A DNA stretch of 64,000 nucleotides. It comes from Minisyncoccota bacterium. GTDB lineage: Bacteria > Patescibacteriota > Minisyncoccia > Phycocordibacterales > CALRHW01. Below the pieces are notes generated by a model that was given only the letters and a program-made list of their open reading frames with translations, did no database searches and was not told the DNA's origin. This document shows positions 10,537 to 57,061 of this stretch, piece after piece. The first letter of the stretch is position 1; every line of letters begins with the position of its first letter. The position numbers and the translations under genes were made by a program. The DNA is taken from assembly GCA_046350795.1 (NCBI GenBank), contig JAXLZT010000002.1:24293-88292 (forward strand), read 5' to 3'.

Positions 10537-10547
10537 CAGCATATTGT

Positions 10548-10685
10548 CCCGATCGGGGAAGCAGGGTGTAATTCCCTCACAGTGCCGCTACGGTGAAAGT
10601 CCGAATGCCGATCAGGATATAATCCCGAGCAGGAAGACGCGCATATATGCGACGGCAATACTCCTCTCGGCAGAGGAGTATTTTT
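10548..10685 (+). promoter_or_regulatory. Probable cobalamin (B12) riboswitch with terminator-type expression platform
   Basis: GGGAAGCAGGGTGTAATTCCC...CACAGTGCCGCTACGGTGAAAG matches the cobalamin aptamer core consensus (GGGAAG..GGTG.AA.TCC...C.G.CCCGC.AC.GT.AA). The hairpin TACTCCTCTCGGCAGAGGAGTA plus TTTTT (10659-10685) abuts the ATG at 10686. Confidence 0.6.
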
Positions 10686-26434: not shown

Positions 26435-27777
26435 TTTATCGGTAGCTTTATTGTAAATGTTGACCCCTCGTCTATTTTTGATTCTAACTCTATTTCTCCG
26501 TTCATTGAGTTGACCATCTTTTTTGTAAGATAAAGGCCTATACCAGTACCAACTTGTTTGGATTCAGTTGCTTTTTCTGTTCTAAAATAACCTTCAAAAA
26601 CCTTTTTTATATTTTCTTCGGCTATTCCTTGTCCTTGATCTTTTATTTTAAAAATATGCCACTTTTCATTTTTTGAATAAAAGATATCTATATTTGTATT
26701 TGGTTTTGAATATTTGATTGCATTGCCTAGTAAATTGGTAAAAATCTGGCGTAGATTTTTTTTATCTGTAAAAATACTGTATTCGTCTGCTATCTTATTT
26801 TTTATATTTACAGATACTTTGTGTTCAAGCGCACTTAGGGTTAGACTCTCTTTTAGTTCTTCAAAGAATTTTTTTATATTTACGTCTTCTTTTTTCAGAC
26901 TTCTCTTTATTGCTTCGTTTGGTGTGTTTATACTGAGTAGGTCGTTGGTATCTCTGATTAGATTTATGCAGTTTATGTATATTAAATCTAATGTTGATCG
27001 TGTATTTGTGTCCATTGAAGAATCTTTTTGTTGTATGTCTTCAAGTGCCCATTTTATGCCTACTAGAGGTGTGCGTATTTCATGGGACGCTATGGAAACA
27101 AACTCTTCTTTCATCCTTAGGTATTTTTCTTCTTTGTTTTGCGCGTATCTCAAAAAATAGATAGTCAAAAGAATAATAAGTGAAATTAAAATAGGGATAG
27201 AGGCGAATGCTATGTTGTTTAGTAAATATTCTACTGCCGGTATATCCATTCCGACCATAGCTATCACTTTTCCGTCATAGTTTTTTATTGGTGCGTAGCC
27301 AGAAAACCATATACCCCACCTATCCCTAGAAGGACCCTCTGATCTACTTTTACCGTCTTGAAATATGAGGTACATATAATCTGAGGCCTCTTGATAACTT
27401 TGTCCTGGTGGGGAATAGTCTACAGAATTCGGATCTTCTGAGTCGGCATAGAAAAAAAGTTTTTTTGATTCATCTTGACCAATGAGATATATAAATCTTA
27501 TATCTGTATTTACTTTCCTAATATTTATTAAAATCTTTTTAAGATTATTGTACGAGTCTTTTTTTAAGTCTTCTTGGCTAGCTGAAAGGTCAAGTATGTC
27601 TTCTTTTGATAAGATTTCAGCAATGGTATTTACTCTCTCCATCAAATGATTACTCTGAGATGAGTCTGTTCTGTTGTAGAGTAAAAAAGAGGATAAGATT
27701 CCTGAGATTAAGAAAAAAGATCCTATAGTCATATACAACAATCTATAGGGTCTTTTTTCTTTTTGTTTTGGAAGCAT
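26431..27777 (-). CDS. Sensor histidine kinase (2 TM helices, periplasmic sensor domain, HisKA + HATPase_c)
   Basis: H-box SIASHEIRTPL, N-box NLLGNAIKYS and G-box GTGIGLYLTKKMV. Confidence 0.8.
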   Translation of the reverse strand: MLPKQKEKRPYRLLYMTIGSFFLISGILSSFLLYNRTDSSQSNHLMERVNTIAEILSKEDILDLSASQEDLKKDSYNNLKKILINIRKVNTDIRFIYLIGQDESKKLFFYADSEDPNSVDYSPPGQSYQEASDYMYLIFQDGKSRSEGPSRDRWGIWFSGYAPIKNYDGKVIAMVGMDIPAVEYLLNNIAFASIPILISLIILLTIYFLRYAQNKEEKYLRMKEEFVSIASHEIRTPLVGIKWALEDIQQKDSSMDTNTRSTLDLIYINCINLIRDTNDLLSINTPNEAIKRSLKKEDVNIKKFFEELKESLTLSALEHKVSVNIKNKIADEYSIFTDKKNLRQIFTNLLGNAIKYSKPNTNIDIFYSKNEKWHIFKIKDQGQGIAEENIKKVFEGYFRTEKATESKQVGTGIGLYLTKKMVNSMNGEIELESKIDEGSTFTIKLPIN

Positions 27778-29960: not shown

Positions 29961-30335
29961 ATGAATAATGGAACAGAGAGATTTTCTATAGAAAAGAGGG
30001 TAAAAAGTGTGGGTCACGCTTGGCGTGGGCTGAGGCTATTTTTTAAAACGACACATAATGCTTGGGTGCATGTTTTTCTATGTCTGATTTCTTTTGGGGC
30101 TGGCTTTTATTTTCAAGTAACATCAGTAGAATGGCTGGCACTTGTGATTGTAGCAGGACTTTTGTTTACAGCCGAAGCTTTCAATACTGCCATCGAAATA
30201 GACATGGATCTGACTTCTCCTGATTTTCATCCCCATGCAAGAGATACAAAAGACGTTGCTGCTGGCGCCGTGCTCATATCCGGCATACTAATGATCCTCA
30301 TAAATATTCTTGTTTTTGCTACAAAAATACAGTAA
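29961..30335 (+). CDS. dgkA: Diacylglycerol kinase (prokaryotic DgkA family)
   Basis: 124 aa and 3 TM helices. EAFNTAIEIDMD matches the DgkA E..N.AIE motif. Confidence 0.7.
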   Translation: MNNGTERFSIEKRVKSVGHAWRGLRLFFKTTHNAWVHVFLCLISFGAGFYFQVTSVEWLALVIVAGLLFTAEAFNTAIEIDMDLTSPDFHPHARDTKDVAAGAVLISGILMILINILVFATKIQ

Positions 30336-30345
30336 TCTCAAGTCT

Positions 30346-31848
30346 ATGTCTAAACCCGGAAGCAAAGAAGATGTAGTTTTGCGCTTTGAGGAAGTGAGCT
30401 TTGATTATGGGCACAACAAGCCGATACTCGATGAAGTAGATTGTTCGGTTCGTCGTGGTAGCAAGATTACAATAATGGGACAAAATGGCGCTGGCAAAAG
30501 CACCATTTTTCAACTTATCACCAAAGAGCTCAAGCCTGCGAGCGGAAAAATAATCGTCTCAAATGGAATGACTATAGCTACAGCGCATCAGGTCATACCT
30601 CGCGATGAGTTAGAGCTATCTGTGCGAGATTTTTTTCTCAAAGCTTTTGAGGATGCCGTAAAGGCCGGTTTGCGAAAAGGTAGTGGAAAAATATATGATA
30701 TCGATCCTAAAATAGATGCGGTGCTAGAAGTGGTCAATCTGCATGCTCCACACGATAGGCTTATAAAATCTTTTTCTGGTGGTCAGCAGGCGCGTCTACT
30801 ACTTGCTGCAGCTTTGATACAAGATCCAGATATTTTACTCCTCGATGAGCCTACAAACAATCTAGATAAGGCCGGTATAGAACATTTGACTCAGTTTCTC
30901 ATTTCATATGATAAGACGGTGATAGTGATCTCCCATGATGCGGATTTCCTCAATGCTTTTACAGATGGTGTCCTTTACCTCAATGTGTTTACAAAAAAGA
31001 TAGAGCAGTATGTCGGCAACTATTTTGACGTAGTAGCTCAAATCACAGCACGTGTAGAAAAAGAAAACAGAAAAAACGCTCAGCTGGCAAAAGAGATTCA
31101 GGCCAACAAAGACAAAGCCAACTTTTTCTCAAATAAAGGAGGACAAATGCGACTCGTAGCTCGTAGAATGCGCGATAAAGCAGAAGAGCTGGAGGAGGAA
31201 ATGGTAGATATCAGACGCGAAGATAAAGTCATCCGCTCTTTTCGCATACCACATCAGCCAGAGCTTGTGGGTGATATTTTAAATATATCTTCTTTTGGCA
31301 CAATCAATCTAAAAACTCATAAGCCACTTCGTCGAAAGACAAAAATAACCTTGCGACGCAATAAGCATCTTTTGCTCAAGGGCCCAAATGGAATCGGTAA
31401 GAGTACTTTGCTCGAGGCCATAGCAAATGGCACAGAAGAGGGTACTACAATATCAGAGGGTGTGCGAGTGGGATATTATAGACAAGATTTTTCTACGCTT
31501 GATTTCAACCAAACTGTGTATGACTCATTACTTTCTGTGATGGATAAACACATAGAAGAGACAATGCGATCTGTAGCGGCTGGATTTTTGATTACAGCAG
31601 ATATGATTCATACAAAAATAGGGGATTTGTCCGAGGGGCAAAAAGGACTCGTGGCTTTTGCGCGACTGGTACTACAAAAGCCTGGGCTTTTGATTCTCGA
31701 TGAGCCGACCAATCATATAAACTTTCGACATTTGCCGGTGATAGCTGAGGCGCTAGATAAATACGAGGGCGCGATGGTGCTAGTGAGTCACGTGCCGGAT
31801 TTTGTAAAGAAGATAAGAATAGATGAAGTGTTGGATCTAGAAAAATAA
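30346..31848 (+). CDS. ABC-F family ATPase (tandem ABC domains, no TMD); start set at MSKPGSKED
   Basis: Two Walker A motifs (GQNGAGKST, GPNGIGKST), two signature motifs (LSGGQQARL, LSEGQKGLV) and an inter-domain linker. Confidence 0.8.
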   Translation: MSKPGSKEDVVLRFEEVSFDYGHNKPILDEVDCSVRRGSKITIMGQNGAGKSTIFQLITKELKPASGKIIVSNGMTIATAHQVIPRDELELSVRDFFLKAFEDAVKAGLRKGSGKIYDIDPKIDAVLEVVNLHAPHDRLIKSFSGGQQARLLLAAALIQDPDILLLDEPTNNLDKAGIEHLTQFLISYDKTVIVISHDADFLNAFTDGVLYLNVFTKKIEQYVGNYFDVVAQITARVEKENRKNAQLAKEIQANKDKANFFSNKGGQMRLVARRMRDKAEELEEEMVDIRREDKVIRSFRIPHQPELVGDILNISSFGTINLKTHKPLRRKTKITLRRNKHLLLKGPNGIGKSTLLEAIANGTEEGTTISEGVRVGYYRQDFSTLDFNQTVYDSLLSVMDKHIEETMRSVAAGFLITADMIHTKIGDLSEGQKGLVAFARLVLQKPGLLILDEPTNHINFRHLPVIAEALDKYEGAMVLVSHVPDFVKKIRIDEVLDLEK

Positions 31849-31854
31849 AATACA

Positions 31855-31955
31855 AAACAAAGTATCTAAAAAGGGTACGGACTTTTTGAAGCTTCAAAAA
31901 GTCCTGAAGCGTTCGCGCCGTCGCGCTCACGACCCCCTTTTTAGATACTTTGTTT
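31855..31955. repeat. Structured intergenic repeat element, copy A (family shared with 43505-43625), at a convergent-gene junction
   Basis: 21-bp perfect outer stem (AAACAAAGTATCTAAAAAGGG / CCCTTTTTAGATACTTTGTTT). Conserved core GGGTACGGACTTTTTGAAGCTTCAAAAAGTCCTGAAGCGTTCGCGCCGTCGCGCTCACGACCCCC. Confidence 0.6.
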
Positions 31956-31962
31956 ATCTGTC

Positions 31963-33261
31963 CTATTTTTCTAAAACCTTAGCAGCGTTCGAACCAGCCA
32001 CAAAACCAGTTGTCCAGCATAGTTGCAAGCTATATCCTCCAGAAGGTCTGTCTATATTTAAAACATCTCCTACAAGATAAAGATTTGAGAAAATGCGTGA
32101 TTGCATTGTTTTAAAATCAACTTCATCTAGTACGACTCCGCCGTTTGTAATAATTGCTTTGTCTGTTCCTAGGAGTGTATCTACGTTGAGTTTTAGGCCT
32201 TTTAAAAGGTTTATAAGACGCATTCTTTCTTCTCTCGTTATGCTGTTGCATTGTATATCTGGATCTATGCCGGAAAAATCTACAATTACTGAAGCTATGG
32301 CAGATGGCAGTAATTTATTTAAAGAGTTTTTGAACTTTTTGTTTGAATTTTCTTTAAAGATTTCTTGAAGTGTTGTGTTTAGTTGTCCGTGGTCTAGGCT
32401 TGGTATTAAATCTAGCGAAATCACAACTTCGCCGTATTTTAAGAGTTCACCAATCTCGCTACTCATGTTTAATATAGCCGGTCCACTTAGTCCGACGTGT
32501 GTGAAAAGTATCTTTCCTTTGTGAACAGCTTGTCTTTCTCCATTTTGGAAAGTCGTTATTTTTGCATTAGGCAAACTCACTCCAGCTATTCTAGAAATCC
32601 ATTTGTCTTTTACGGCTATTGGTACGAGAGACGGAGTTGGATTTATTATTGTATGTCCTATTTTTTTAAGCCATTTATATCCATCTCCGGTAGAACCAGT
32701 TTCTGGACGGGAAGTGCCTCCGGTCGCGATCACTATATTTTTGCCATATATCACATCTCCGCTCTTTGTTTTTACGCCGACAATTTTCTCTAAAGCGCCG
32801 GCGAGATTTTTCTTTACCGCCAGCACCTCTTTGTCCAGGACTATCTCTGTGACGGGGGAGTTGGAGAGCACTTTGACGTCGCCGGCGCGAACATAATCTA
32901 CCAGCACATCCCAGACAGATTGAGCACTATCACTTACAGGGAAAACACGCCCTTCATTTTCCACTTTTGTATCCATTTTTCTTATATGGAAAAAATCTAG
33001 AGTTTTTTCTACATCCCATTGTGAGAAAGCAGAAAACAAAAACTTTGCATTGTCTTTATATTTTTCTAAAAACTTTCTGACGTTTAGTTGTGCGTTTGTA
33101 ACATTACATCTGCCGCCTCCTGTAATCAGAAGTTTTTTGCCTAGAGAGTCATTTTTTTCAATCAACAATACCTTTGCACCAAGCTCTCCTGCACGCCCAG
33201 CTGTCATCATTCCAGCGGGTCCACCACCTACTACTATGACATCCCACTGTTTACTTTCCAT
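31963..33261 (-). CDS. HI0933-like (BaiN/aminoacetone-oxidase family) FAD-dependent flavoprotein
   Basis: N-terminal Rossmann DVIVVGGGPAGMMTA and the HI0933 motif LLITGGGRCNVTN. Confidence 0.75.
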   Translation of the reverse strand: MESKQWDVIVVGGGPAGMMTAGRAGELGAKVLLIEKNDSLGKKLLITGGGRCNVTNAQLNVRKFLEKYKDNAKFLFSAFSQWDVEKTLDFFHIRKMDTKVENEGRVFPVSDSAQSVWDVLVDYVRAGDVKVLSNSPVTEIVLDKEVLAVKKNLAGALEKIVGVKTKSGDVIYGKNIVIATGGTSRPETGSTGDGYKWLKKIGHTIINPTPSLVPIAVKDKWISRIAGVSLPNAKITTFQNGERQAVHKGKILFTHVGLSGPAILNMSSEIGELLKYGEVVISLDLIPSLDHGQLNTTLQEIFKENSNKKFKNSLNKLLPSAIASVIVDFSGIDPDIQCNSITREERMRLINLLKGLKLNVDTLLGTDKAIITNGGVVLDEVDFKTMQSRIFSNLYLVGDVLNIDRPSGGYSLQLCWTTGFVAGSNAAKVLEK

Positions 33262-33265
33262 ATTT

Positions 33266-34966
33266 TCAGCCTATATCTTTTATTTTCTTTGCTAAGTATC
33301 TTTCTCCGCCCTCCATTTCTTCTGAAAGTTCTACGAATATTTTGTATTCTTCCTCTGTAAGCTCTCTCTTTGAGCTAGCTTTTTCAAGCATCTTTAGGTA
33401 TCGTCTCAAGTCTTTTTTGAGTAATTCAAATACTGCATGCATCTCTTGTTCTGTTTCTGTCTTATCTTTTTCCATCTCACGCTTTAGGTTGTGTGATTTT
33501 CTGATGATGAATAGTATTAATAGGATAAATAGAAGTATCAATACCAGAACAGTTATACCTATTGAGATTATTTGTATTGTTTTTGTACCAAACCACACCG
33601 CCTTTGTTTCCCTTACATTTACAAAGACTTTCTCTGAAGGATCGCTTTTTACTTTGTCTGTTCTTATTGTTTCTGCCCACACTGATACATTACCGATGTT
33701 TCTTATTGGTTCTGTATTAAATGAGAATATGCCATCAGGATTGGATTTTACTGTGTAGCTTTTAGCTTCAAGTCCTTCTTCTTTTATCCATACGACTATA
33801 TCTGACTCTCCGTAGAATGATTTTCCTTGGACTTCAAATTTTGAGTCTACCTGTATGAATTCTGGGTAAGTAGTGATTTTTGGTATCTTTGTGACAGGTG
33901 AGTTTATAGAAACTGTTGATTCTGTGTTGTTGCCAGCCTTATCAAACACTTTTACAGTAATATCTTTTCTTCCTGAAGGTAGAGGAGATAAGATTATTTC
34001 TTGTTCAGAATCAGACTCAACATTTGCTTCTGCTATTTTTTCTTCTCCTAAATATACTTCGTATTTAGATACTCCAGATAGTGCATCTTTTGCAGATACT
34101 GAAAGAGAAATTGTGTCTTCTTCTGTAGTTTTTGAGTATATATTTAGATCTGTTGGTTTTGTAAGATCTATTTGTATTTTTCTACTTGCTATAGGTCCAA
34201 ATCCAGATGAGTTTCTAAATCTAGCGTTTATGAATAGTTTTCCTTCCGGTAGATTTTCAAGGGTCTTTGTCTTTATTGCTGGCTGATAATTTACGTACGG
34301 TACTGTGTCAGAGAATTTACTCAATACGAGCTGAACAGCTAATACTCCAGAAGGTATATCCCAAGTAAAGTTTCCAGATGTTGTGTTGTACCAAGAATCA
34401 GCGTTAGGCATATCTGGAGAGGTTATATTTGGAGCTTTCGGTAGTGAAACAGGGGTTGTTGGTGTCACAGGCACAGTCACGGGTGTTCCAGAGACTGTTA
34501 TAGAGCCACCTCTGGCTTGTGAAAATACATTTGTTCCTTTTCCATCATTTGCTCTAATTGCAGATGAGCCAAAAGATAAGCTAGCAACACCTGCTTTTTT
34601 TGCTCTAAAGTTTACTTTTAATATATTTCCAGTCTGTCCAGAATATCCAGGATTGGGTACGCCACCATTGAAAGATACTATTCCGCTTGTGTTGGAAAAT
34701 GTTGGTTGTTCAATCCACATTGTCATGACTGAGCCAGCTGTGGTGACAGAATCAACACTCAATGTATCAGCAGGGAAGAATAGACTTCCTTCTGCGTTGT
34801 TTACTTTTACTTCGTCAGTCGATATGTATACGGTTGCTGTAAAAGTACCATTTATTGATACTTGGGATTTGTCCAATACCAAGTACATATCTGCTGCACT
34901 CGCTATTGATGGAAGGATAAAAGATAGGCAGAGTATTATTGCATAGATAAATATTTTCCTTTTCAT
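33266..34966 (-). CDS. Membrane-anchored surface protein with N-terminal cohesin-like domain and Ig/FN3-like modules
   Basis: Signal peptide. Cohesin-like segment LVLDKSQVSINGTFTATVYISTDEVKVNNAEGSLFFPADTLSVDSV...GNILKVNFRAKKAGVASLSF. C-terminal TM helix followed by a charged coiled tail. Confidence 0.5.
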   Translation of the reverse strand: MKRKIFIYAIILCLSFILPSIASAADMYLVLDKSQVSINGTFTATVYISTDEVKVNNAEGSLFFPADTLSVDSVTTAGSVMTMWIEQPTFSNTSGIVSFNGGVPNPGYSGQTGNILKVNFRAKKAGVASLSFGSSAIRANDGKGTNVFSQARGGSITVSGTPVTVPVTPTTPVSLPKAPNITSPDMPNADSWYNTTSGNFTWDIPSGVLAVQLVLSKFSDTVPYVNYQPAIKTKTLENLPEGKLFINARFRNSSGFGPIASRKIQIDLTKPTDLNIYSKTTEEDTISLSVSAKDALSGVSKYEVYLGEEKIAEANVESDSEQEIILSPLPSGRKDITVKVFDKAGNNTESTVSINSPVTKIPKITTYPEFIQVDSKFEVQGKSFYGESDIVVWIKEEGLEAKSYTVKSNPDGIFSFNTEPIRNIGNVSVWAETIRTDKVKSDPSEKVFVNVRETKAVWFGTKTIQIISIGITVLVLILLFILLILFIIRKSHNLKREMEKDKTETEQEMHAVFELLKKDLRRYLKMLEKASSKRELTEEEYKIFVELSEEMEGGERYLAKKIKDIG

Positions 34967-35839
34967 TTATTTATTTTTGTAGAATTTCCAAAATCCAAAA
35001 AATACTATCAATATAAATATGATTATACTAATAATTTTCATCCAAGGCTTGCTGTTTTGTGGATTAAAGGTTGATGTCCTTTCGTTACCCGCATTATCTA
35101 TTGCTTTTACTGTAATAAGACTAGAGAGACTCTGGTCTTGTAAAACATAAGGACTTCCTGATCTCACTGGTGCGCGATTTCCTTCTGTTATTTCGTATCT
35201 GTTTATTCCAGAGTCGTTATCTGTAGTAAAGAAACTGATAAAATATTTACCATCAAATAGAGAATGGGTGCTTCCAAAATCTATATTAAATTTATTTGGT
35301 GGAGTTTTATCGTTATTTGTGAGCGACACGAGTTCATTTTCGTTTGTTCCTGATATTTGCACTGGTATTTGAATAGAGTCACCTGAAACTGCGGTTTTTG
35401 TACCTTTACCGTCATTTAGAAATGCTGTTGCATTTACTAGGTTTATTTTTATTGGCTCTGTGTTTGTTGGTTTTACTGCTATTGTGAAAAGTCTCAGAGA
35501 TTTTCCATATACTCCAGCTGTGGTACCACCAACGAAAGATATTTTGTCGCTATTAATATCTAGTGATGGTTTTCTTGGCCATAAGTCAAAGATTGATCCA
35601 CCTGTATTTATAGAAACCACATCTTTTGGTGTACTAAACTTTATTTCACCTTCTATTGCGTTTATTTCTTCGGCCGTATCAAGCATTACTTTTATGATAC
35701 TTGTGTTGCCAACGCTGATTGGTTTTTCTGGTAGGTCAACAAATATTTTTGCTGCATTTGCATAAGAGGGTATTGCAAATACGAAAAGTAATGTTATGGC
35801 TATGCGCGCGGTGATCTTTTGTAAAAGTTTTTTATTCAT
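34967..35839 (-). CDS. Membrane-anchored cohesin-like domain protein (start set at MNKKLLQKIT)
   Basis: Signal peptide. IKVMLDTAEEINAIEGEIKFSTPKDVVSINTGGSIFDLW...LRLFTIAVKPT parallels the cohesin-like segment of the neighbouring gene. C-terminal TM anchor. Confidence 0.5.
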   Translation of the reverse strand: MNKKLLQKITARIAITLLFVFAIPSYANAAKIFVDLPEKPISVGNTSIIKVMLDTAEEINAIEGEIKFSTPKDVVSINTGGSIFDLWPRKPSLDINSDKISFVGGTTAGVYGKSLRLFTIAVKPTNTEPIKINLVNATAFLNDGKGTKTAVSGDSIQIPVQISGTNENELVSLTNNDKTPPNKFNIDFGSTHSLFDGKYFISFFTTDNDSGINRYEITEGNRAPVRSGSPYVLQDQSLSSLITVKAIDNAGNERTSTFNPQNSKPWMKIISIIIFILIVFFGFWKFYKNK

Positions 35840-35849
35840 GATTTTCAAT

Positions 35850-38450
35850 TTATATAACACTTCCGGAAGTGCCCCATTGTGAAAGAAGTATTGAGAAATC
35901 AACAGAGTTGACTGTGCTGTCTTGATTTATATCTACACATTCGTTTTGAAATGGCGCTATATTTTTCCAAAAAGCAAGCAAGATAGAGAAATCTACAGAG
36001 TTTACTATGTTGTCGGAGTTGAAATCTGCACCTTTACATGAGCCGGTATTACCTGATGATGAACTTCCGCCACCACTACTTCCGCCGCCACCACCGCCAC
36101 CGCCGGAGCTACCACCCCCACTGACTGTGAATGTTCTAGATGATCCTGAAGAATCTGTACCGAAGTACACTATGAGTTTGAAATAATAATCTCCTGCAGA
36201 ATCAACTGTCGCTGTAAGGTTTGTATTCCAATCTTCTCCTGGGTTTATAAATTTAGCACCTGTTGCGTGATATTCATCGTCTCCACCGCCACAAGAGTTT
36301 GATGCGCTAGATACAACGCACCATTCGTATTGGTATTCATATCCAGCTAGACCTTCGTTTGTAATTGTTACGTTTGCGCTGATATCAGAGACTGAGTTTG
36401 CTGTAACACTATTTATAATTACCTGAGCAGGGGAGCCAGCTACTAGCCAGTAATCGTTGTTTGTAAGTGTTTTACCACTTTCAACTTGTGTACTTATAAC
36501 ACTTTCCCATACGCCCTGAGTCGCACCAGAGGCTACAGAATATGTGTATTCATATATACCGGTTCCTACAGATGACATCGCAACATTTGATACTGTTACA
36601 TTTCTGAGAGGATCGTAAAGTGTGATTGTTGGTGTAGCAAATGGGGAAGTAGGAACACTGTTGTTATTTCTGATTTCAATTCTAGCTCTGTATGTTTCGC
36701 CAGCTTGAACTTCGTTGAAGTCTGACATTACTGTTGTCCAGCCAGAGCTTCCGCCGATTGCGCTTATCGCTGAAGCAAGAGATGTACTAGCAGTTAAAAC
36801 GCTACTATTTGTATTACTATTCACAGCACTTGTACCAGCTGTGATCGCTGAAGCCAAACTACTTGTCGCTGTCTGTACGTCAGACAATGTTGCGAGACTT
36901 CCGCTTGTGAGTGCTCCGCTTGTTAGAGTACGTACAGAGTTTGACCAGACATCAGACGCAAGTGTGCCGAAAGAGGTGAGTGTTCTACCACTATATGACC
37001 AAATCACTGCAGGAATTGTTGCAAACAAGCTTGATGAAGCTGTTGCGATCTCTGCGTCAGTGTTTGCGTTTACATCAGTCACTATATTCGCTGTCGCACT
37101 ATTGGTATTTGCGTTGATTACAGCAGCCAAACTAGATGTAGCTGTTGTCACCACTGAGCTTGTGTTGCTGTTTACAGCACTTGTACCAGCTGTGATCGCT
37201 GAAGCCAAACTACTTGTCGCTGTCTGTACGTCAGAAAGTGTTGCGAGAGAGCCAGATGTGAGCGCTCCACTTGTTAGAGTACGTACAGAATTTGACCAGA
37301 CACTAGATGTCACATCAGCTACGAGCGTACCAAAAGATGTAAGTGTTCTTCCGCTATATGACCAGATTGTTGCGGGAAGTGTAGCGAATAGAGATGATGA
37401 GGCCGTTGCAATCTCAGCATCAGTGTTTGCATTTACGTCAGTTACTATGTTTGCAGTAGCGCTGTTTGTGTTCGCATTAATAACCGCGGCTAGACTAGAT
37501 GAAGCTGTTGCAACCCTTGAGTCAGTGTTTGAGTTTACGACAGCAGCCAAACTACTTGTCGCTGTCTGTACGTCAGACAATGTTGCGAGACTTCCGCTTG
37601 TGAGTGCTCCGCTTGTTAGAGTACGTACAGAGTTTGACCAGACATCAGACGCAAGTGTGCCGAAAGAGGTGAGTGTTCTACCACTATATGACCAAATCAC
37701 TGCAGGAATTGTTGCAAACAAGCTTGATGAAGCTGTTGCGATCTCTGCGTCAGTGTTTGCGTTTACATCAGTCACCATATTCGCTGTCGCACTATTGGTA
37801 TTTGCGTTGATTACAGCAGCCAAACTAGATGTAGCTGTTGTCACCACTGAGCTTGTGTTGCTGTTTACAGCACTTGTACCAGCTGTGATCGCTGAAGCCA
37901 AACTACTTGTCGCTGTCTGTACGTCAGAAAGTGTTGCGAGAGAGCCAGATGTGAGCGCTCCACTTGTTAGAGTACGTACAGAATTTGACCAGACATCAGA
38001 AACTAAGCTACCAAAGGAGCTAAGTGTACGAGTAGTACTGTTCCAAACAGCATTCGCTATGGTACTTGTAGCAGCTATTGTCGCTCCGACTGTAAAGGTT
38101 TTATTTACTTTCACTAAATCACCGTTAGAAATGTTCCCACACGTCATATAAGTAGGCCAATTGCCCTCACTTTCTCCAGCACCAATAGAAAAATTGTAGT
38201 ATGTCCAACCATTTGCATTGGCTGTCATTGCACCAGCGTTTAATTTTACGCTTCCAGAAGGATCGTAGATAGTCAGAGTACAGCCAGCAGTAGTTGTTGC
38301 TACAAAATCATCATCATAAACAAACTCACCTATAGTAATAGTGTCACCAAGAGAAGCTCTTTGATAGTCCGCTTTTGCTGTATTTGAAAAAGACAAAAAC
38401 AACCCAAAAAATAAAATGCAAAATGCAAAAAAGGGTAGTGTTTTTTTCAT
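35850..38450 (-). CDS. Large secreted dockerin-containing repeat protein (start set at MKKTLPFFAF)
   Basis: Signal peptide. Four or more ~110-aa tandem repeats (WSNSVRTLTSGALTSGSLATLSDVQTATSSLA...NANTDAEIATASSSLFAT). A Gly/Ser linker. A C-terminal type-I dockerin pair (DFNSDNIVNSVDFSILLAFW, DINQDSTVNSVDFSILLSQW) with canonical Ca-loop positions 1,3,5,9,12. Confidence 0.7.
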   Translation of the reverse strand: MKKTLPFFAFCILFFGLFLSFSNTAKADYQRASLGDTITIGEFVYDDDFVATTTAGCTLTIYDPSGSVKLNAGAMTANANGWTYYNFSIGAGESEGNWPTYMTCGNISNGDLVKVNKTFTVGATIAATSTIANAVWNSTTRTLSSFGSLVSDVWSNSVRTLTSGALTSGSLATLSDVQTATSSLASAITAGTSAVNSNTSSVVTTATSSLAAVINANTNSATANMVTDVNANTDAEIATASSSLFATIPAVIWSYSGRTLTSFGTLASDVWSNSVRTLTSGALTSGSLATLSDVQTATSSLAAVVNSNTDSRVATASSSLAAVINANTNSATANIVTDVNANTDAEIATASSSLFATLPATIWSYSGRTLTSFGTLVADVTSSVWSNSVRTLTSGALTSGSLATLSDVQTATSSLASAITAGTSAVNSNTSSVVTTATSSLAAVINANTNSATANIVTDVNANTDAEIATASSSLFATIPAVIWSYSGRTLTSFGTLASDVWSNSVRTLTSGALTSGSLATLSDVQTATSSLASAITAGTSAVNSNTNSSVLTASTSLASAISAIGGSSGWTTVMSDFNEVQAGETYRARIEIRNNNSVPTSPFATPTITLYDPLRNVTVSNVAMSSVGTGIYEYTYSVASGATQGVWESVISTQVESGKTLTNNDYWLVAGSPAQVIINSVTANSVSDISANVTITNEGLAGYEYQYEWCVVSSASNSCGGGDDEYHATGAKFINPGEDWNTNLTATVDSAGDYYFKLIVYFGTDSSGSSRTFTVSGGGSSGGGGGGGGSSGGGSSSSGNTGSCKGADFNSDNIVNSVDFSILLAFWKNIAPFQNECVDINQDSTVNSVDFSILLSQWGTSGSVI
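36830..38000. repeat. Near-identical tandem DNA repeats (about 690 bp x2, each containing about 330-bp sub-repeats) inside the dockerin protein gene
   Basis: Blocks such as TCAGACAATGTTGCGAGACTTCCGCTTGTGAGTGCTCCGCTTGTTAGAGTACGTACAGAGTTTGACCAGACATCAGACGCAAGTGTGCC recur verbatim near 36880 and 37570. The shadow ORF 36715..38151 repeats identical peptide blocks. Confidence 0.7.
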
Positions 38451-38541
38451 GAGAATATTTGATTCAATAATATTTGATTCAAACTGATTAGTAAAGAAAT
38501 ATATCCACAGATTTTTCATTTATTTGTTCAAATAACATGTT

Positions 38542-39153
38542 ATGATATTTATAGTTTTTATGTTTTCCTTTGCACCAAATAAATTTTCTTTTCGTTTAAT
38601 TAGGAAAGGAAAAATAAAAAAAGAAAACGGTGAAAGTGTACCGGCTATTGGCGATTTCGATAAGCGCCTTTTCTTGAAAGTACTTGGTACAGCTGGAGTA
38701 GGTGTGTTTGCTGCAACAATGTTTCCCAAGAAAGCAGACGCTCTCATCATGGGAAGCACTCCTTCTTCTAGTGTTGTTGGGTTAAAAGATGATTCAAATA
38801 CTCGTATAAATCCAGCCACAGAAGAAAGTTTGCAGAGTTTGCTAAGCGGTCAGGGGGTAAACAAAATCACAACAAGCCTGAGCTCGTCTGGCACGGTGGT
38901 TACACCATCTTCTGGTAAAAAGTTGCGTATATATAGTACACGTTTTTCTTTGAGTGCTGATGCCACTTATGTTTCTTTCCGTTTTACATCTGGTGGCACA
39001 GATAAAGAAAAATATATTTCACCAAAAACTGGTGGTTTGTATGGTTCCAACAACCATCCCAACTATATAGAAGGTGGTGTGAATGAAGTTTTTTATTGCG
39101 CTATCAGTGGTACGACTACTGTGCAGATAAATGTGGATTATTTAGAAGTATAA
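38542..39153 (+). CDS. Secreted protein with Tat-like signal (KRLFLK + hydrophobic core + ADA), unknown function
   Basis: DKRLFLKVLGTAGVGVFAATMFPKKADALI resembles a twin-arginine (here K-R) signal peptide with an AxA cleavage site. The start codon is uncertain (no in-frame ATG nearby). Confidence 0.4.
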   Translation: MIFIVFMFSFAPNKFSFRLIRKGKIKKENGESVPAIGDFDKRLFLKVLGTAGVGVFAATMFPKKADALIMGSTPSSSVVGLKDDSNTRINPATEESLQSLLSGQGVNKITTSLSSSGTVVTPSSGKKLRIYSTRFSLSADATYVSFRFTSGGTDKEKYISPKTGGLYGSNNHPNYIEGGVNEVFYCAISGTTTVQINVDYLEV

Positions 39154-39174
39154 TAGTGTATAATTAAAAAAATT

Positions 39175-41835
39175 ATGGCGAAAAGAGCGATAGAACATTT
39201 ATTTACCGGCACGACAACACCGTATTCCGTCTATGATTCTACAAAAACAGTTTTGGGTGACTTGATTCAGCAATACACAGGCGCGACTTCAACAGACAAA
39301 TTTGCCGGACCAACAAAAATCGGTGTCGCTAGACCCAACGAAACCGGTACAGCTATACCAGCTATTTATCCACACGTTATTTCTTGGGCTGATAAGAGAG
39401 GTTATTATAGCACTGGTACTGTATCTGCTTCAGGCACCTCTGTAACAGGTAGTGGTACATCATGGATTTCAAACGGTGTACCAATCGGTGCGCAAATTGG
39501 TTTTGGCAGTACAGATCCAGGGTCAATCACAACCTGGTATACCATAAGCACTGTTCCTTCAAATACTTCTATTACAATATCCTCTTCTGCTGGCACAATA
39601 GCTGGCGGAACATCTTACGTTATAAATAAAGAATTACAAAAAGATTGGGTATTTTTGGCTGACAACGCCACAGCGGCTGCCACTCGTCGTATTACTTGTT
39701 TTGAATACAATAGATCGACATCACTTTTTTCTTGGAGAGGTTTTATTACCATTACATATCCTTCTGGAGGAGGTAATCAAACCATCAGAGGTATGCGTGT
39801 GATATATGACACATACACCACAGGAACAGTCGGTGTTTCTGGTGCTACGGTGACAGGTAGCGGTACTACTTGGTCTGCTGATCGTATTGCCATTGGTTCA
39901 AGAATTGGTTTTGGTAGTACAGATCCCACTCAAATATCTACTTGGTATTATATAAATGCCGTCGGTGGCGATACTTCTATTACTATTCAAACAAACGTTA
40001 CTGCCAGTGGTACTGGAGGTACTGCTGCAAACATTTCCATAGCTTCAAGCACTGCTTATGTTATAGAAGATTTAAAGGTGCTGACAGCCACCACTGCTGT
40101 GGTGGTTGCTGCTGGAGGTTTGGCGGTGGTAAATGGTCTCTCTTATGATGATTTTGCTGTTGGAGGTACTACTATCGCTGCCGCGACTACAGTAGACAAA
40201 ACAAAAGCTGTATATTGTTTGGTTGATTTGGACTCTCTATATTCTACTGGTACCGTAACAGTGCCTTCTTCTACTACAGTTACAGGAAGCGGTACTTCTT
40301 GGGCAGCTGCAACACACTTGGGTTGTATGATTGGTTTTGGATCTACAAATCCAGCTTCTATTACTACTTGGTATACTATTACGGCGGTTGGTTCTACTAC
40401 ATCACTCACCATTTCTTCTGCAGCAACAGTTTCTGGAGGTACTGCGTATGTGATAGTGGGTGGAAACGGTATTTCTGGTGGTTTGGCTATTGATGATAGA
40501 GTGAGTTGGACTGAACAACATGCATATATTATTGAGGTCCAGGCTGGTACGACACCTCAGGTATATAAATACAATTTTCGTGCAAATTTAAACACATTAG
40601 GAAACGTGGCAGCAGGTAAGTCGGCTTGTGGCTGGATGCTTACTACTGGTACACAGACTGTTACAGGTACAGTTTCTCAGACAAACAACGGAAGAATAGG
40701 AACTTTGTCCCACGGTCCAGGATCTGGTGTTAAATGTTTATATTTTGCTGCCACAACTCGTATTCATAGGGCACCCCTTTCTGCTATTGTTCAGGGAAGC
40801 TCAACGTGGGTATCTGATTCTATGACCGAAATACCTACTGGAGGTACTGGTACATATACCGCTTCGAGTCTTATGACATCTGTAGAAATTGCTGATCAAA
40901 TAGACAGACTTATTATCACATCTACAGGTGCTGGAGGTACTACAGCTCACCATCGTGCTTATATTACAAAGTATGATTCTTCTGGTTCTTATGTTTTTGA
41001 TCACATATTTTTGACAGATAGTGCCCAGCAAGATCAATCTACAGCAGATTCTGATTCTACACCTCATCCAAATCCTCAGGGTGCTGCTTTGTCTGTATGG
41101 TCACAGGGAGGATTGGTATATATGGCACGTACTGGTACAGCTTCTACTACAAACATAATGTATTCAGTACCACTTGGTGCTGATTGGCAGTATGCTGACG
41201 GGACGGTAAAACAAAGACTTGTTACACCTGAGCTTTCTACCACAAACGCTACAAAACTTTCTCGTGTGTATATCAACGATGTCGGATATTTGGGATCAGG
41301 TGGTCTCACTATGCCTACAGAGCCGATTCGTATTTATTATAGAACTACTGGAATAGATGATGATTCTGGAACTTGGACACTAGTAGATCAGACGGGGGAT
41401 TTGGCAGAAGCAACACCAGCATCTACTGTACAATTTGCTATAGAGTTTAGATTAATTGGTGCCACATGTATACCAAATAGAGTTTTCAATTTGTGTTGTA
41501 CATACGAGGACAATACAACAGACAGTCATTATCAGCCGTCTGTTGCGCAATCTTCGATTACAAGCAAGCGTTTTGCATGGAGATTTTCAACAGCGTTTGG
41601 TGGTACTGTGCCGACTCTCAGAATACGACTATATAATGCAGAGACAGATGGTTTGATTTTGGATGATACAACCACAGCATCTGCTTCTGGAACATTTGAG
41701 AAGTCTACTGATGATGGTCAAAACTGGGGTTCATACAATACAACAGACAAGGGAAATGAAACTACTTACATTCGTTATACACCGACATCTTTGGCTGATG
41801 ATATAAAAGTAAGAGCCCTTTTAACTCAAAACTAA
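39175..41835 (+). CDS. 886-aa protein with three ~70-aa Trp-containing internal repeats; unknown function (surface/fibre-like)
   Basis: Repeats: GTSVTGSGTSWISNGVPIGAQIGFGSTDPGSITTWYTIS; GATVTGSGTTWSADRIAIGSRIGFGSTDPTQISTWYYIN; TTVTGSGTSWAAATHLGCMIGFGSTNPASITTWYTIT. Ser/Thr/Gly-rich with no recognisable catalytic motif. Confidence 0.45.
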   Translation: MAKRAIEHLFTGTTTPYSVYDSTKTVLGDLIQQYTGATSTDKFAGPTKIGVARPNETGTAIPAIYPHVISWADKRGYYSTGTVSASGTSVTGSGTSWISNGVPIGAQIGFGSTDPGSITTWYTISTVPSNTSITISSSAGTIAGGTSYVINKELQKDWVFLADNATAAATRRITCFEYNRSTSLFSWRGFITITYPSGGGNQTIRGMRVIYDTYTTGTVGVSGATVTGSGTTWSADRIAIGSRIGFGSTDPTQISTWYYINAVGGDTSITIQTNVTASGTGGTAANISIASSTAYVIEDLKVLTATTAVVVAAGGLAVVNGLSYDDFAVGGTTIAAATTVDKTKAVYCLVDLDSLYSTGTVTVPSSTTVTGSGTSWAAATHLGCMIGFGSTNPASITTWYTITAVGSTTSLTISSAATVSGGTAYVIVGGNGISGGLAIDDRVSWTEQHAYIIEVQAGTTPQVYKYNFRANLNTLGNVAAGKSACGWMLTTGTQTVTGTVSQTNNGRIGTLSHGPGSGVKCLYFAATTRIHRAPLSAIVQGSSTWVSDSMTEIPTGGTGTYTASSLMTSVEIADQIDRLIITSTGAGGTTAHHRAYITKYDSSGSYVFDHIFLTDSAQQDQSTADSDSTPHPNPQGAALSVWSQGGLVYMARTGTASTTNIMYSVPLGADWQYADGTVKQRLVTPELSTTNATKLSRVYINDVGYLGSGGLTMPTEPIRIYYRTTGIDDDSGTWTLVDQTGDLAEATPASTVQFAIEFRLIGATCIPNRVFNLCCTYEDNTTDSHYQPSVAQSSITSKRFAWRFSTAFGGTVPTLRIRLYNAETDGLILDDTTTASASGTFEKSTDDGQNWGSYNTTDKGNETTYIRYTPTSLADDIKVRALLTQN

Positions 41836-41836
41836 T

Positions 41837-42445
41837 ATGATTCACATAGAAAATAATTCAGAGATTATAGAGAATAAAAATTTAAGAGTCGCTTCTCCTA
41901 CAGGTGATTATGAAGACACTGCTCTTGTAGATTTCTTTGATATTAGTAAGCCGGGTATGGTAGCTGGTTCTTTTCAGGCTCAATATATAAAATATGGCGG
42001 TCTCGTTTATAAATTTAACGAGCCATCAGAGCTCGGTGAAGCTATTTTAAAAGTAGACCCAGAATCTACACATTCAGCGGCATCTTATGTGCGCATGAGC
42101 AAGGAGCTTTTGGCTCAGATGAATGGTGGCACCCTAGATTCTTCTTCTCTTGATCAAATTAGGGTTGAAGAAAAAAATATTGTAGAAGAATCAGAGCCTG
42201 TAATACAAGAGCCAGCAGTACAAGATCCTGTTGTAGAAAAACCAAAAAAGCCAGAAAGGACTCGCAAACCAACACTTTCTTCTATGGACGGCGCTTTGTC
42301 TACTACCACTCCAGTTACCACCACATCATCTGATAACATAATAGAAGATGTCCAGTCTGTGGTAGAAGATGTTACCGTAAAAGCAGAACAAATCTCTAGA
42401 ACAGCAGAAAAAATATCAGATGTTGTAGAACAAATCGTTAGATAA
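41837..42445 (+). CDS. Acidic hypothetical protein with Pro/Glu/Thr-rich low-complexity tail
   Basis: 202 aa. The start overlaps the preceding stop (translational coupling). No motifs recognised. Confidence 0.4.
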   Translation: MIHIENNSEIIENKNLRVASPTGDYEDTALVDFFDISKPGMVAGSFQAQYIKYGGLVYKFNEPSELGEAILKVDPESTHSAASYVRMSKELLAQMNGGTLDSSSLDQIRVEEKNIVEESEPVIQEPAVQDPVVEKPKKPERTRKPTLSSMDGALSTTTPVTTTSSDNIIEDVQSVVEDVTVKAEQISRTAEKISDVVEQIVR

Positions 42446-42449
42446 AAGC

Positions 42450-42629
42450 TATGGCTCTTACAGATGTAAATTTTAATGAGGGTGAGGTGCAAGATTTTTT
42501 ACTGGAAATACCAACCGCTGTTTACTCTGGATCTTTAGAGGATGTCTTGGTGGAAGAGTCAGGTAGTCAAACATTGATGTCTGAGATACCAGAAGCCTCT
42601 GGCGGAAATATCTTCATAATGTCAGAATA
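42450..42629 (+). CDS. Small acidic hypothetical protein (59 aa)
   Basis: An ATG 5 nt after the previous stop and an uninterrupted frame (MALTDVNFNEGEVQDFLLEIPTAVYSGSLEDVLVEESGSQTLMSEIPEASGGNIFIMSE). Confidence 0.3.
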
Positions 42630-42634
42630 GTGGG

Positions 42635-43366
42635 GTGGATGGATTAAAAGAAAATTTTAAAAAGTTTCTACCTTATTTAGAGGATTTACGTAGGAAGCTC
42701 TATTTTTCTACAATATTCTTTCTTGCTGTTTTTATAATAGGTTTTTTCTCTTCTGCTTTTATTATTAAAAGTGTAGTAGATATCTTTAGAATGAGTGGTG
42801 TGGTTATTGCCACTACTTCTCCATTTCAATTTGCAGATGTTGCAATGGATATCGGCTTTTTTTCAGCCATTATTTCAACTCTACCAATAGTGGTTTTTCA
42901 GATTTTCTCTTTTGCTTCTCCGGCACTTACCAATAGAGAGAAAAAATGGTTTTTTCTAGCTGTACCTATTAGTATTATATTTTTTCTGTCAGGATTTTCT
43001 TATGGTTTCTTGATTCTTTATTATTCTTTTGGTCTTTTAGCAAAAATAAATAGCGGTCTTGGTGTGCAAAATATATGGGACGTAAGCTCTTTTTTGTCAC
43101 AGATTTTTATTACGTCATCACTTCTTGGTGTGGTATTTCAATTTCCAATTATACTAACGGCTCTAATAAAAATCGGTATTATTAGTCGAGACTTTTTAAG
43201 TCAAAAGAGGCGCTTTGCTTACTTCTTGGTGTTCGTTCTGGTGTCTTTACTTCCACCTACTGATGGGCTATCATTATTAGCAATGGGATTGCCATTGGTT
43301 TTTTTGTACGAATTTACAATTTTAATTAATATTAAAAAACAACAACATGTTTGGATTAGGAACTAG
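42635..43366 (+). CDS. tatC: Twin-arginine translocase subunit TatC
   Basis: 243 aa and 6 TM helices. The N-terminus LEDLRRKLYFSTIFFLAVFIIGFF is typical of TatC. Confidence 0.7.
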   Translation: MDGLKENFKKFLPYLEDLRRKLYFSTIFFLAVFIIGFFSSAFIIKSVVDIFRMSGVVIATTSPFQFADVAMDIGFFSAIISTLPIVVFQIFSFASPALTNREKKWFFLAVPISIIFFLSGFSYGFLILYYSFGLLAKINSGLGVQNIWDVSSFLSQIFITSSLLGVVFQFPIILTALIKIGIISRDFLSQKRRFAYFLVFVLVSLLPPTDGLSLLAMGLPLVFLYEFTILINIKKQQHVWIRN

Positions 43367-43505
43367 AGAGCTCATAATACTTGCGATAATCTTCATTCTA
43401 CTTTTTGGTGCAAAGAAGATTCCAGAACTTTCAAAGAGTATAGTAGAGGCTATCAGACACATGAGAGGTGCTTTCAAGGATATTGATGAGCCGAAGAAGA
43501 AGTAG
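43347..43505 (+). CDS. tatA: Twin-arginine translocase subunit TatA/E (52 aa; below the ORF-track length cutoff)
   Basis: MFGLGTRELIILAIIFILLFGAKKIPELSKSIVEAIRHMRGAF matches the TatA consensus (MFG.G..ELIII..I.LLFGAKKLPELG...G..IR.F). Overlaps the tatC 3' end. Confidence 0.65.
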   Translation: MFGLGTRELIILAIIFILLFGAKKIPELSKSIVEAIRHMRGAFKDIDEPKKK

Positions 43506-43625
43506 GTAACAACAAAACAAAAGACCTTCTCAGGGTACGGATTTTTTGAAGCTTAAAAAATCCTGAAACGCTCGGCTCGACAGCCTCGCGACCCCCTTCG
43601 AAGGTCTTTTGTTTTGTTTGTTACC
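43505..43625. repeat. Structured intergenic repeat element, copy B (same family as 31855-31955), spanning the whole convergent tatA / pseudouridine-synthase junction
   Basis: 25-bp outer stem (GGTAACAACAAAACAAAAGACCTTC / GAAGGTCTTTTGTTTTGTTTGTTACC). Core GGGTACGGATTTTTTGAAGCTTAAAAAATCCTGAAACGCTCGGCTCGACAGCCTCGCGACCCCC. Internal hairpins change in a compensatory way relative to copy A. Confidence 0.6.
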
Positions 43626-44419
43626 TAAAATCCCAAACCTTTCATAAACACATTGAGTTCTTCTCCTTTTAGCTCGCGGTAGCTACCTTTTGGTAATTTG
43701 CCAAGCTCTAGATTCATGATGCGCACTCGCTCTAGATCTACCACGTCGTTGAAAAGTGCAACGCACATGCGGCGGATCTGATGTTTTTTTCCTTCTGTAA
43801 GTATGATTCTAAACAAGTGATCGTTTATTACTTTTACTTTACAAGGCTTCGTCGTGTAGCTTTCTGTACCTTCTATGCGTACACCAGATTCCATTTTTTC
43901 TTTAAAATTTGCACGCAATTTTTCGCGAGTTTTTACAATGTATTCTTTTTCGTGAATATAGTCAGGGTTTAAAAGTTTGTCTGTGATACGGCCGTCATTG
44001 GTAAGTATTAAAAGTCCGTGTGAGTCCTTGTCGAGTCGGCCGACAGGGAAGACGCCATTTAGTTTTGTAGCACTGAGGACATCTTGCTCACCACGCTGAG
44101 GGGAGTGGGTGATCACTCCAACCGGCTTGTTGTATATGTAGTAGACATATTTTTTTGTTAGACTTCCTCCGCGCACTTCTACTAGATCATTTTCTTGTAC
44201 TTTGTCGCCAAGCACTGCAAGTCGGCCGTTGATATAAACTTTCTTTTTTTCCACGAGTTCATCGCCACCTTTTCGGGTAGCGTATTTTTTCAAAGCTAGA
44301 TATTTATTTATTCTCATTGGAAATTCTGGCTTTAATGGTTCGTTTATTTTGTTTGTTTTAGATGTTTTCATGTTGGCACTATAGCATATAAATAGCACAT
44401 AAATGTTTAAGGACCCCAA
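43625..44419 (-). CDS. rRNA pseudouridine synthase (RsuA/RluB family) with N-terminal S4 domain
   Basis: INKYLALKKYATRKGGDELVEKKKVYINGR (S4-like) and the catalytic-region motif GRLDKDSHGLLILTNDG. Confidence 0.75.
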   Translation of the reverse strand: MGSLNIYVLFICYSANMKTSKTNKINEPLKPEFPMRINKYLALKKYATRKGGDELVEKKKVYINGRLAVLGDKVQENDLVEVRGGSLTKKYVYYIYNKPVGVITHSPQRGEQDVLSATKLNGVFPVGRLDKDSHGLLILTNDGRITDKLLNPDYIHEKEYIVKTREKLRANFKEKMESGVRIEGTESYTTKPCKVKVINDHLFRIILTEGKKHQIRRMCVALFNDVVDLERVRIMNLELGKLPKGSYRELKGEELNVFMKGLGF

Positions 44420-45413: not shown

Positions 45414-45436
45414 TTTATTATCAGGAGTTATCTACA

Positions 45437-45468
45437 AAAGACCGCCTTCACTGGCGGTTTTTTGTTTT
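45437..45468 (+). terminator. Rho-independent terminator after the RRM gene
   Basis: AAAGACCGCC TTCACT GGCGGTTTTTTGTTTTG gives a GC stem followed by a U-run. Confidence 0.6.
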
Positions 45469-56691: not shown

Positions 56692-56723
56692 TAATCAAAG
56701 ACATCTAAGACAACCAAAAACAG

Positions 56724-57048: not shown

Positions 57049-57061
57049 ATGCTTCAAATCA

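Follow-up and report, generated by a model that had tools for sequence, protein, structure and literature searches.

An interspersed palindromic repeat with a conserved branched core in Parcubacteria-group bacteria

Two pairs of converging genes in the window, by which we mean the whole 64,000-nt stretch of DNA that was analysed, end at long non-coding palindromes, here called copy A and copy B (Table 1). Copy A fills the whole 114-nt gap between an ABC-F gene on the plus strand and a HI0933-like gene on the minus strand, both of which, by our own reading of the sequence, terminate in ..LEK*. The first-pass annotation had described this gap as one extended palindrome with a second copy at about 43505-43625, and this was confirmed by the 22-mer that it proposed as a probe (2 matches, against 0 expected by chance), by folding and by the inverted repeats. 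Outside the perfect arms of copy A, weaker outer arms (inverted repeat I19, 13/15 complementary) lie within the last codons of the two genes. Since, in addition, the HI0933-like protein ends in AKVLEK* in the window and in AKQK* in its Baikal-G202 orthologue (locus L036), it is suggested that the palindrome of copy A grew into the coding end. In copy B, the arms at 43511-43535 and 43594-43618, extended to 43503-43627, take in both TAG stop codons. Folded as RNA, copy A reaches −50.5 kcal/mol (z −9.1) and copy B −54.1 kcal/mol (z −9.5); on both strands the two copies adopt one common structure, with energies from −50 to −58 kcal/mol and z from −9.1 to −10.0, and with DNA parameters z ranges from −8.4 to −11.0. 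No third copy was found in the 64-kb window by a covariance-model search, even with the filters off.

Table 1. Coordinates of the two copies, of their neighbouring genes and of two related palindrome families (window positions, unless a locus is named).
Feature	Position	Strand	Remarks
Copy A, whole palindromic element	31855..31955	+	inverted repeat I2, 100% complementary; covariance model R1, 114 bits
Copy A arms, perfect, 21 nt	31855-31875 and 31935-31955		inverted repeat I2
Copy A core, 65 nt	31873..31937	+	GGG-UAC-hairpin 1-UGAAG-hairpin 2-ACC-CCC three-way junction; orthologous to L036:5702-5765
Copy A hairpin 1	31879..31904	+	GGACTTTTTGA/AGCT/TCAAAAAGTCC, conserved AAGCTT apex; from fold
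Copy A hairpin 2	31910..31931	+	CGT-TC-GCGC-CGTC-GCGC-TC-ACG; from fold
Copy A outer weaker arm	31833..31847	+	inside last codons of ABC-F gene; pairs with 31964-31978
Copy A outer arm partner	31964..31978	+	inside last codons of HI0933-like gene
Copy B, whole palindromic element	43503..43627	+	inverted repeats I1 and I10; R1, 127 bits
Copy B core, 64 nt	43533..43596	+	
Copy B hairpin 1	43539..43563	+	from fold
Copy B hairpin 2	43569..43590	+	CGC-TC-GGCT-CGAC-AGCC-TC-GCG; from fold
ABC-F-type ATPase gene, ends at copy A	30310..31848	+	Pfam ABC_tran matched twice; two-domain
HI0933-like flavoprotein gene, ends at copy A	31963..33261	-	Pfam HI0933_like
tatA, ends at copy B	43347..43505	+	tatC at 42635-43366
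S4 + PseudoU_synth_2 pseudouridine-synthase gene, ends at copy B	43625..44419	-	
Diverged core 'var3'	L045:8635-8756; L077:2109-2229; L082:2684-2805		
Third palindromic repeat family	L079:275-423, 4949-5115; L069:7466-7623, 9877-9955; L005:5179-5366; L082:about 2850-3110		

The cores of the two copies, which had been taken to be identical over 64 nt, match in 52 of 65 columns (80%), and the differences are mostly compensated: ten of the 13 make up five compensated base pairs, and one is an additional C, by which hairpin 1 gains a pair. In copy A, as in the family at large, hairpin 2 carries an invariant 2x2 UC/UC internal loop, which reads GA/GA on the opposite strand.

Both window palindromes are copies of an interspersed, apparently undescribed, non-coding palindromic repeat of Parcubacteria-group (CPR) bacteria. 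A gapped pattern of the core was run against one genome per GTDB species, and a looser pattern against JGI metagenome contigs; together with the covariance model, the pattern scan recovered 88 occurrences of the core, 53 of them less than 97% identical to each other, and the expectation of a genome-wide or wider family was thus borne out. Among the species representatives the pattern matched 40 times, at 39 loci of ten metagenome-assembled genomes; apart from one known only as 'uncultured bacterium', these carry the labels Patescibacteria, Parcubacteria, Paceibacterota, Vogelbacteria or Saccharibacteria. The hosts include Vogelbacteria RIFOXYB1_FULL_42_16 and RIFOXYD1_FULL_46_19, Paceibacterota SO_2016_GW1_87, Parcubacteria Baikal-deep-G202 and TrH-25oct19-271, a Patescibacteria-group bin, two Saccharibacteria-labelled bins and the 'uncultured bacterium' bin. 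So far the element is restricted to the Parcubacteria group. The metagenome contigs added 56 further loci, and two copies that the pattern had missed were recovered with model R1, as were weaker matches to diverged or truncated copies. Each genome has few copies, about 10-30, and up to 12 were counted in a metagenome-assembled genome. Viral contigs scanned with the pattern gave no match, and a phage origin was rejected on this ground. The Rfam scan that had been recommended matched no family: with Rfam 15, nothing on the element reached the gathering threshold, and at E up to 10 it attracted only miRNA-hairpin noise of at most 21.5 bits. Moreover, no description of such an element was found in the published literature on CPR repeats, terminators, RNA motifs and mobile DNA.

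The element is a stem of 20-45 bp, A-rich in its 5' arm and T-rich in its 3' arm, which carries the conserved core at its apex. As folded, the core reads GGG-UAC-[hairpin 1]-UGAAR-[hairpin 2]-ACC-CCC, a three-way junction that caps the long outer stem; its closing stem is the 3-bp GGG/CCC, and the two hairpins, different and unrelated in sequence, give it the shape of a T. Hairpin 1 has 9-11 bp and a loop containing AAGCUU; by our own reading of the alignment, this AAGCTT loop, the same on both strands, is present in 51 of the 53 copies. Hairpin 2 consists of CGY, the UC/UC internal loop, 4 bp, a CGNC loop and the return strand.

Covariation, proposed at the outset as the check to be made once more copies were aligned, is strong. 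At the 19 core pairs of the 53 copies less than 97% identical, 98.8% of the cells are paired; ten of the 19 pairs change on both sides, with 104 double-changed cells, a level equalled by none of 500 shuffles. When the 3' partner was slid by 1-3 columns either way, at most 2 pairs and 4 cells remained double-changed. In the family alignment four of nine pairs covary in hairpin 1 and six of seven in hairpin 2, and when 22 arm pairs are added to the core, 30 of the 41 do so. Only a single G-U occurs among about 1000 paired core cells, and the unpaired bases of the junction, of the internal loop and of the loops are near-invariant among copies. What is conserved is therefore the structure and not the sequence of the stems, which change from Watson-Crick to Watson-Crick on both sides. 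It follows from the covariation and the near-invariant unpaired bases that constraint acts on a folded single strand and that pairing has to be possible on both strands. Moreover, about 25 unpaired core bases are near-invariant while the genes are only 65-75% identical, and this implies a specific partner, either a protein or a tertiary fold.

The arms fall into two types. In type 1 (the window, Baikal-G202, TrH-271 and SRP135725) they follow the scheme ...AAAAAG-NNCYN-AAAAA|core|TTTTT-...-CTTTTT..., and their sequence varies from copy to copy, although complementarity is perfect over 21-32 bp. An example is AAAAAGACCTCAAAAA|core|TTTTTGAGGTCTTTTTGTTTTT, in which a stem followed by a U-tract is read on both strands, as it also is in copies A and B. 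The short stem between A-tract and core is of 6 bp and GC-rich in the clearest copies (e.g., L017), and more AT-rich in copy A. In type 2 (Vogelbacteria and Paceibacterota SO_2016) the copies have common boundaries, about 150 nt apart, with the terminal inverted repeats TTTAAATTAYAAAACTC / GAGTTTTRTAATTTAAA, as in Vogelbacteria RIFOXYB1_FULL_42_16, and a conserved asymmetric internal loop; in young type-2 copies even the distal differences are compensated. Most mismatches in the arms are transversions (178); those compatible with wobble pairing amount to 43 when the core strand is read and to 86 when the opposite strand is, in part owing to common ancestry of the copies. The form A-tract, stem and T-tract is shared by ordinary hairpin terminators of the window, at 45434-45465 (arms ACAAAAGACCGCC..GGCGGTTTTTTGT), 27710-27761, 56711-56746 and 57055-57091; the arm part of R1 weakly matches the last three, and not the first.

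Palindromes with other cores were met at several loci. An 'alt core' family, containing CGCTTGGCGC, is present at L017:5799-5910 and L008:322-436 with perfect A/T-rich arms of 22-32 nt, and its L017 copy folds with z −7.0 to −8.3. The diverged core 'var3' reads GAGC-AC-GGATATTTTTCTGCTGAAAAATTCC-TCGA-GCTCGCGCCGTCGCGCTC-CCTAG-GCTC and is carried in type-2 arms, as the standard core is. A third palindromic repeat family, with arms AAAAACTTTCTTAATTTCAAAA and apex CCCAGACCCAAGCCCAACCA, is nested within its own copies and also within standard and var3 cores, where it sits in the hairpin-1 loop and splits the core.

Comparison of orthologous sites revealed both retention and turnover. Copy A is retained in Baikal-G202, where identity is 73-81% in the flanks and about 89% in the core, and where every difference in hairpin 1, at the base of hairpin 2 or in the arms is compensated. 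Similarly, L011, L022 and L039 are one common site with an identical core, the flanks of L011 and L022 being 76-86% identical. On the other hand, the recA-efp spacer holds the element in L034 and just a plain A6-GTCTAC/GTAGAC-T6 terminator in L020; the element of L031 and L009 is absent from L014; and in L041 and L082, whose flanks are 97% identical, the former has one standard element and the latter a var3 element plus a reversed standard core, the hairpin-1 loop of which is split by a palindrome of about 150 nt of another family. Between L012 and L030 (flanks 82-87% identical) the core is inverted and the arms and hairpin 2 are different. Finally, at two sites (L024 vs L017, L019 vs L008) one genome has the standard core and the other an 'alt core' T-shaped palindrome. 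Some copies are thus inherited at orthologous sites, and others are absent, replaced by another subfamily, inverted or interrupted in close relatives. Neither a target-site duplication nor a clean empty site could be defined in these comparisons, the junctions of filled and empty sites being too diverged or rearranged. Insertion of the core into the loops of pre-existing host terminators was considered and was not supported as the sole origin of the element: where the core differs between orthologous sites the arms do so too, and L034 retains, beside the element, a relic of the 3' half of the plain terminator.

Copy B lies at one edge of a block missing in L036, which retains sequence resembling only the 3' arm of copy B. 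The block, of about 10 kb (window 33266-43505), is absent from the otherwise syntenic Baikal-G202 locus (L036:7040-7075), and contains large ORFs with few or no Pfam matches, including an 889-aa MG2/dockerin protein, together with tatC and tatA.

Genomic context was scored, with simple ORF calls, on 49 non-redundant copies. Tandem gaps hold 28 of them, convergent gaps 10 and divergent gaps 11, close to a random intergenic placement, and L016:3455-3578 is clearly located between a divergently transcribed gene and serS. Hence the convergent position of copies A and B is not a trait of the family, contrary to the initial description of the element as typical of convergent junctions. Type 1 alone has 6 convergent, 10 tandem and 1 divergent copies, and, with the same simple ORF calls, at least one gene 3' end is faced by 38 of the 49 copies and by 16 of the 17 of type 1. 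Several tandem copies fill the entire intergenic gap, which leaves little room for a downstream promoter. With respect to the GGGTAC strand, 20 tandem copies are co-oriented and 8 anti-oriented with the genes, or about 17 and 7 once orthologues are removed (p about 0.06).

On this evidence, the reading that we prefer, and to which we give about an even chance, is that of a non-autonomous palindromic DNA repeat of the REP/MITE kind, whose long-lived copies at gene ends, A and B included, would work as bidirectional terminators or as mRNA 3'-end hairpins. The element might spread, or be exchanged, by means of a trans-acting activity or through recombination or gene conversion between copies. Selection, intrastrand template switching (quasipalindrome correction) or the two together could maintain the perfect complementarity of its arms, template switching being extrapolated here from the established mutagenesis of quasipalindromes. 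Copies at gene ends would then persist since the whole hairpin may serve as a factor-independent terminator or as a protecting 3'-end hairpin: in the order A-tract, short stem, core, returning stem and U-tract, the design would be the same whichever way it is read. Such a design would also explain the near-absence of G-U pairs, as each of them would be an A-C mismatch on the other strand.

Two of the identities put forward initially are partly retained in this reading. For a bidirectional terminator module speak the A/T-tract arms and the stem and U-tract on both strands; against it count the 11 of 49 copies in divergent gaps, which need no terminator, and the tandem copies that take up their whole gap and so leave little space for a promoter downstream, and a plain terminator role leaves the near-invariance of about 25 unpaired core bases unexplained. 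The MITE-like element is backed by the shared boundaries and inverted repeats of type 2 and by the presence or absence of the element at orthologous sites (L034/L020, L031 and L009/L014, L041/L082), but no target-site duplication was definable and no partner was found. In fact, a tblastn search with E. coli RayT over 0.8 Mb, a weak test of the BLAST level, yielded as its best match one with E 2.1, which lies in a spurious frame of another gene, and a degenerate search for solo type-2 ends of a possible autonomous element in the 8-14 kb around each copy returned only A/T-rich noise.

A tentative proposal, in our judgement rather improbable as it stands, goes further and sees in the core the module by which a novel system, peculiar to Parcubacteria-group bacteria, recognises the element. 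This system might be mobile DNA of a new kind, spreading as a T-shaped hairpin and targeting or building palindromes, terminator hairpins and the loops of other elements among them, or an RNA 3'-end module bound by a lineage-specific protein. If so, modular T-shaped palindromes with interchangeable cores (the standard, the 'var3', the 'alt' and the CCCAGACCC-apex family) would be a whole class of elements that shapes gene ends in these reduced genomes.

Among the alternatives, the one that survives best, although we regard it as doubtful, is a cis-acting structured RNA, in which the three-way-junction core would be the functional part, as a site for a protein or RNase or as an exonuclease-resistant 3'-UTR fold, and the stem would only present it. 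The host would then retain the copies for their part in the processing or stability of mRNA or in the differential expression of operons, and they would not be selfish DNA. The very strong covariation with invariant junction and loop bases is what such an RNA would leave, as are the retention at orthologous sites of a core more conserved than the flanking genes, the copies that exactly fill tandem gaps and the lean of tandem copies to one orientation. Furthermore, the strand opposite GGGTAC folds better, by 6.4 kcal/mol on average, because there UC/UC becomes a tandem G-A motif. However, RNA families normally use wobble pairs, of which the core has one in about 1000 paired cells, and the mismatches of the arms are likewise for the most part transversions, which are not wobble-compatible. 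Further arguments against it are that no Rfam family matched, even when E was allowed to reach 10, that some copies lie in divergent promoter regions, and that decayed and split copies exist. We tried to choose an RNA strand from G-U counts, fold energies and orientation relative to the genes, and the signals conflict: the orientation bias and the more stable strand point opposite ways. L012 and L030, although orthologous sites, carry the core in opposite orientations. Although the alignment covaries as a structured RNA should, the single G-U, the mixed orientation and the flip at one site do not single out one functional strand; together, the near-absent G-U, the strand-symmetric AAGCTT loop and the flip fit an element that works or folds from both strands. 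In particular, a discrete small RNA gene, which had been listed among the possible identities, is not favoured, given that no conserved promoter is apparent, that strand asymmetry is lacking and that the core can be inverted between orthologous sites.

Other candidates were tried and set aside. A promoter inside the core was sought by eye and no acceptable −35/−10 pair was seen; nor is a conserved promoter apparent around the core, since flanks and arms differ from copy to copy. For a ribozyme, the hammerhead core was compared by eye on both strands, and CUGAUGA, GAAA and the cleavage-site context do not fit. A tRNA-like or Y-RNA-like reading was discarded because there is no 7-nt T-loop and the junction is three-way.

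Unlikely, in our estimate, is that the element acts as DNA, with a T-shaped hairpin or cruciform, extruded from either strand, recognised by an HUH/Y1 nuclease, a recombinase or a structure-specific protein; such an enzyme would mobilise the element or use it in replication, recombination or uptake, and any effect on transcription would be incidental. The compensation by Watson-Crick pairs only, the equal foldability of the two strands, also with DNA parameters, and the hairpin-1 loop AAGCTT, which is the same on both, are in keeping with it. So are the flip/flop of the core between its arms, the palindromes of the other family nested in the hairpin-1 loop at three loci, the swap of core families at the same site and the position of copy B at the edge of the 10-kb indel relative to L036. 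By contrast, no candidate enzyme was found (the RayT search, a weak test, was negative), neither a target-site duplication nor a conserved cleavage-site context was seen, and the two core hairpins are mutually unrelated, unlike the left-end and right-end hairpins of IS200/IS605. The low copy number does not favour it either, and the preference of type 1 for gene ends would need an extra explanation. As for a chance palindrome or an assembly artefact, its probability is practically negligible: contigs L040, L031 and L009 do end inside copies of the element, but the same core is found in independent assemblies from many samples, and chance would have to produce a 22-mer with no match expected, folds with z of about −9 and a covariation that beats all 500 shuffles.

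Coming back to the preferred reading of a non-autonomous repeat co-opted as terminator, the closest known systems are the REPINs (PMC3337134) and the terminator-forming MITEs. REP/REPIN elements, described with their RAYT transposases in Pseudomonas and enterobacteria, form long-persisting populations whose copies are individually different yet keep the hairpin, and their flanking A/T runs have been read as co-option for termination (PMC3337134, PMC8049555). Likewise, no two copies of the CPR element are alike, the hairpin is common to all, and co-option as a terminator is suggested by the A and T runs on either side. Nevertheless, a REPIN conserves two inverted REP arms and varies the spacer, whereas the CPR element conserves the apex, a three-way junction of two unrelated hairpins, and varies the arms. 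It also differs in being present in tens and not hundreds of copies, in having CPR bacteria as hosts, and in that no RAYT was found in the 0.8 Mb searched with the weak tblastn test.

Bacterial MITEs that act as terminators or promoters include the Neisseria Correia/NEMIS elements, the enterobacterial ERIC/IRU, the pneumococcal RUP and the Bacillus bcr1. The CPR element resembles them in being non-coding, about 100-150 nt long and intergenic, often at gene ends, with terminal inverted repeats and a stable fold, and in showing presence/absence polymorphism, subfamilies and nesting; the Vogelbacteria type-2 copies, with their shared boundaries and terminal inverted repeats, come nearest. It departs from them because no target-site duplication or parent insertion sequence was found, because type-1 arms are unique to each copy and yet perfectly complementary, and because compensatory changes have preserved the core from genus to genus, a sign that it is constrained by more than the binding of a transposase at the ends.

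With bidirectional intrinsic (Rho-independent) terminators the element shares the A-tract, the GC-containing stem and the T-tract in a strand-symmetric order; it fills convergent gaps and takes in stop codons, and the ordinary terminators of the window resemble its arms. In contrast, a conserved branched insert of 64 nt stands where a loop of 3-8 nt is usual, and copies are also located in divergent gaps. A likeness limited to topology links it to parvovirus/AAV terminal repeats, in which a long stem is capped by two small hairpins and the apex occurs as flip and flop. AAV inverted terminal repeats are the ends of linear single-stranded DNA genomes and serve in hairpin-transfer replication with a Rep nickase, whereas the CPR elements are internal to the chromosome, with no Rep-like gene or binding repeats identified.

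CPR genomes are tiny and gene-dense, and no account of their non-coding repeats, terminators or mobile DNA was found in the literature. A branched core of 64 nt that is better conserved than neighbouring housekeeping genes, and whose stems change only by double substitutions preserving Watson-Crick pairs, is a module of use to the host or else a highly successful parasite of the genome. The element offers a tractable case for studying, in genomes with reduced repair, how palindromes so long and perfect are preserved, inverted and exchanged, and its core is a defined RNA or DNA bait with which to seek a binding partner. The covariance model R1 is a ready tool for annotating gene ends in CPR genomes and, since contigs end inside copies, the element breaks short-read assemblies and can be used as a marker of such breaks.

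Some further features of the window and of related contigs were recorded. The contig L040 (Logan SRR26348419), which is identical to window 31865-36852 and ends inside copy A, is the only public contig found with the exact HI0933-like protein. In L064, L069 and L009, from three CPR genomes, a conserved stretch that may code for an RNA is preceded by a well-conserved sigma-70-type promoter, TTGACAAATTA ... GGGTGTATAATATAGG (alignment columns about 330-385). Window 18317-20674, 36809-38027 and 50920-52241 are occupied by long internal repeats, tandem or duplicated, with periods of 1521, 351 and 219-231 nt, and the repeat with the 351-nt period sits inside the large ORF of the 889-aa protein (35850-38519). 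The only window match at the Rfam gathering threshold is an AdoCbl-II (cobalamin) riboswitch aptamer, RF01689, at 10541-10618 on the plus strand (57.2 bits, E 2.3e-11).
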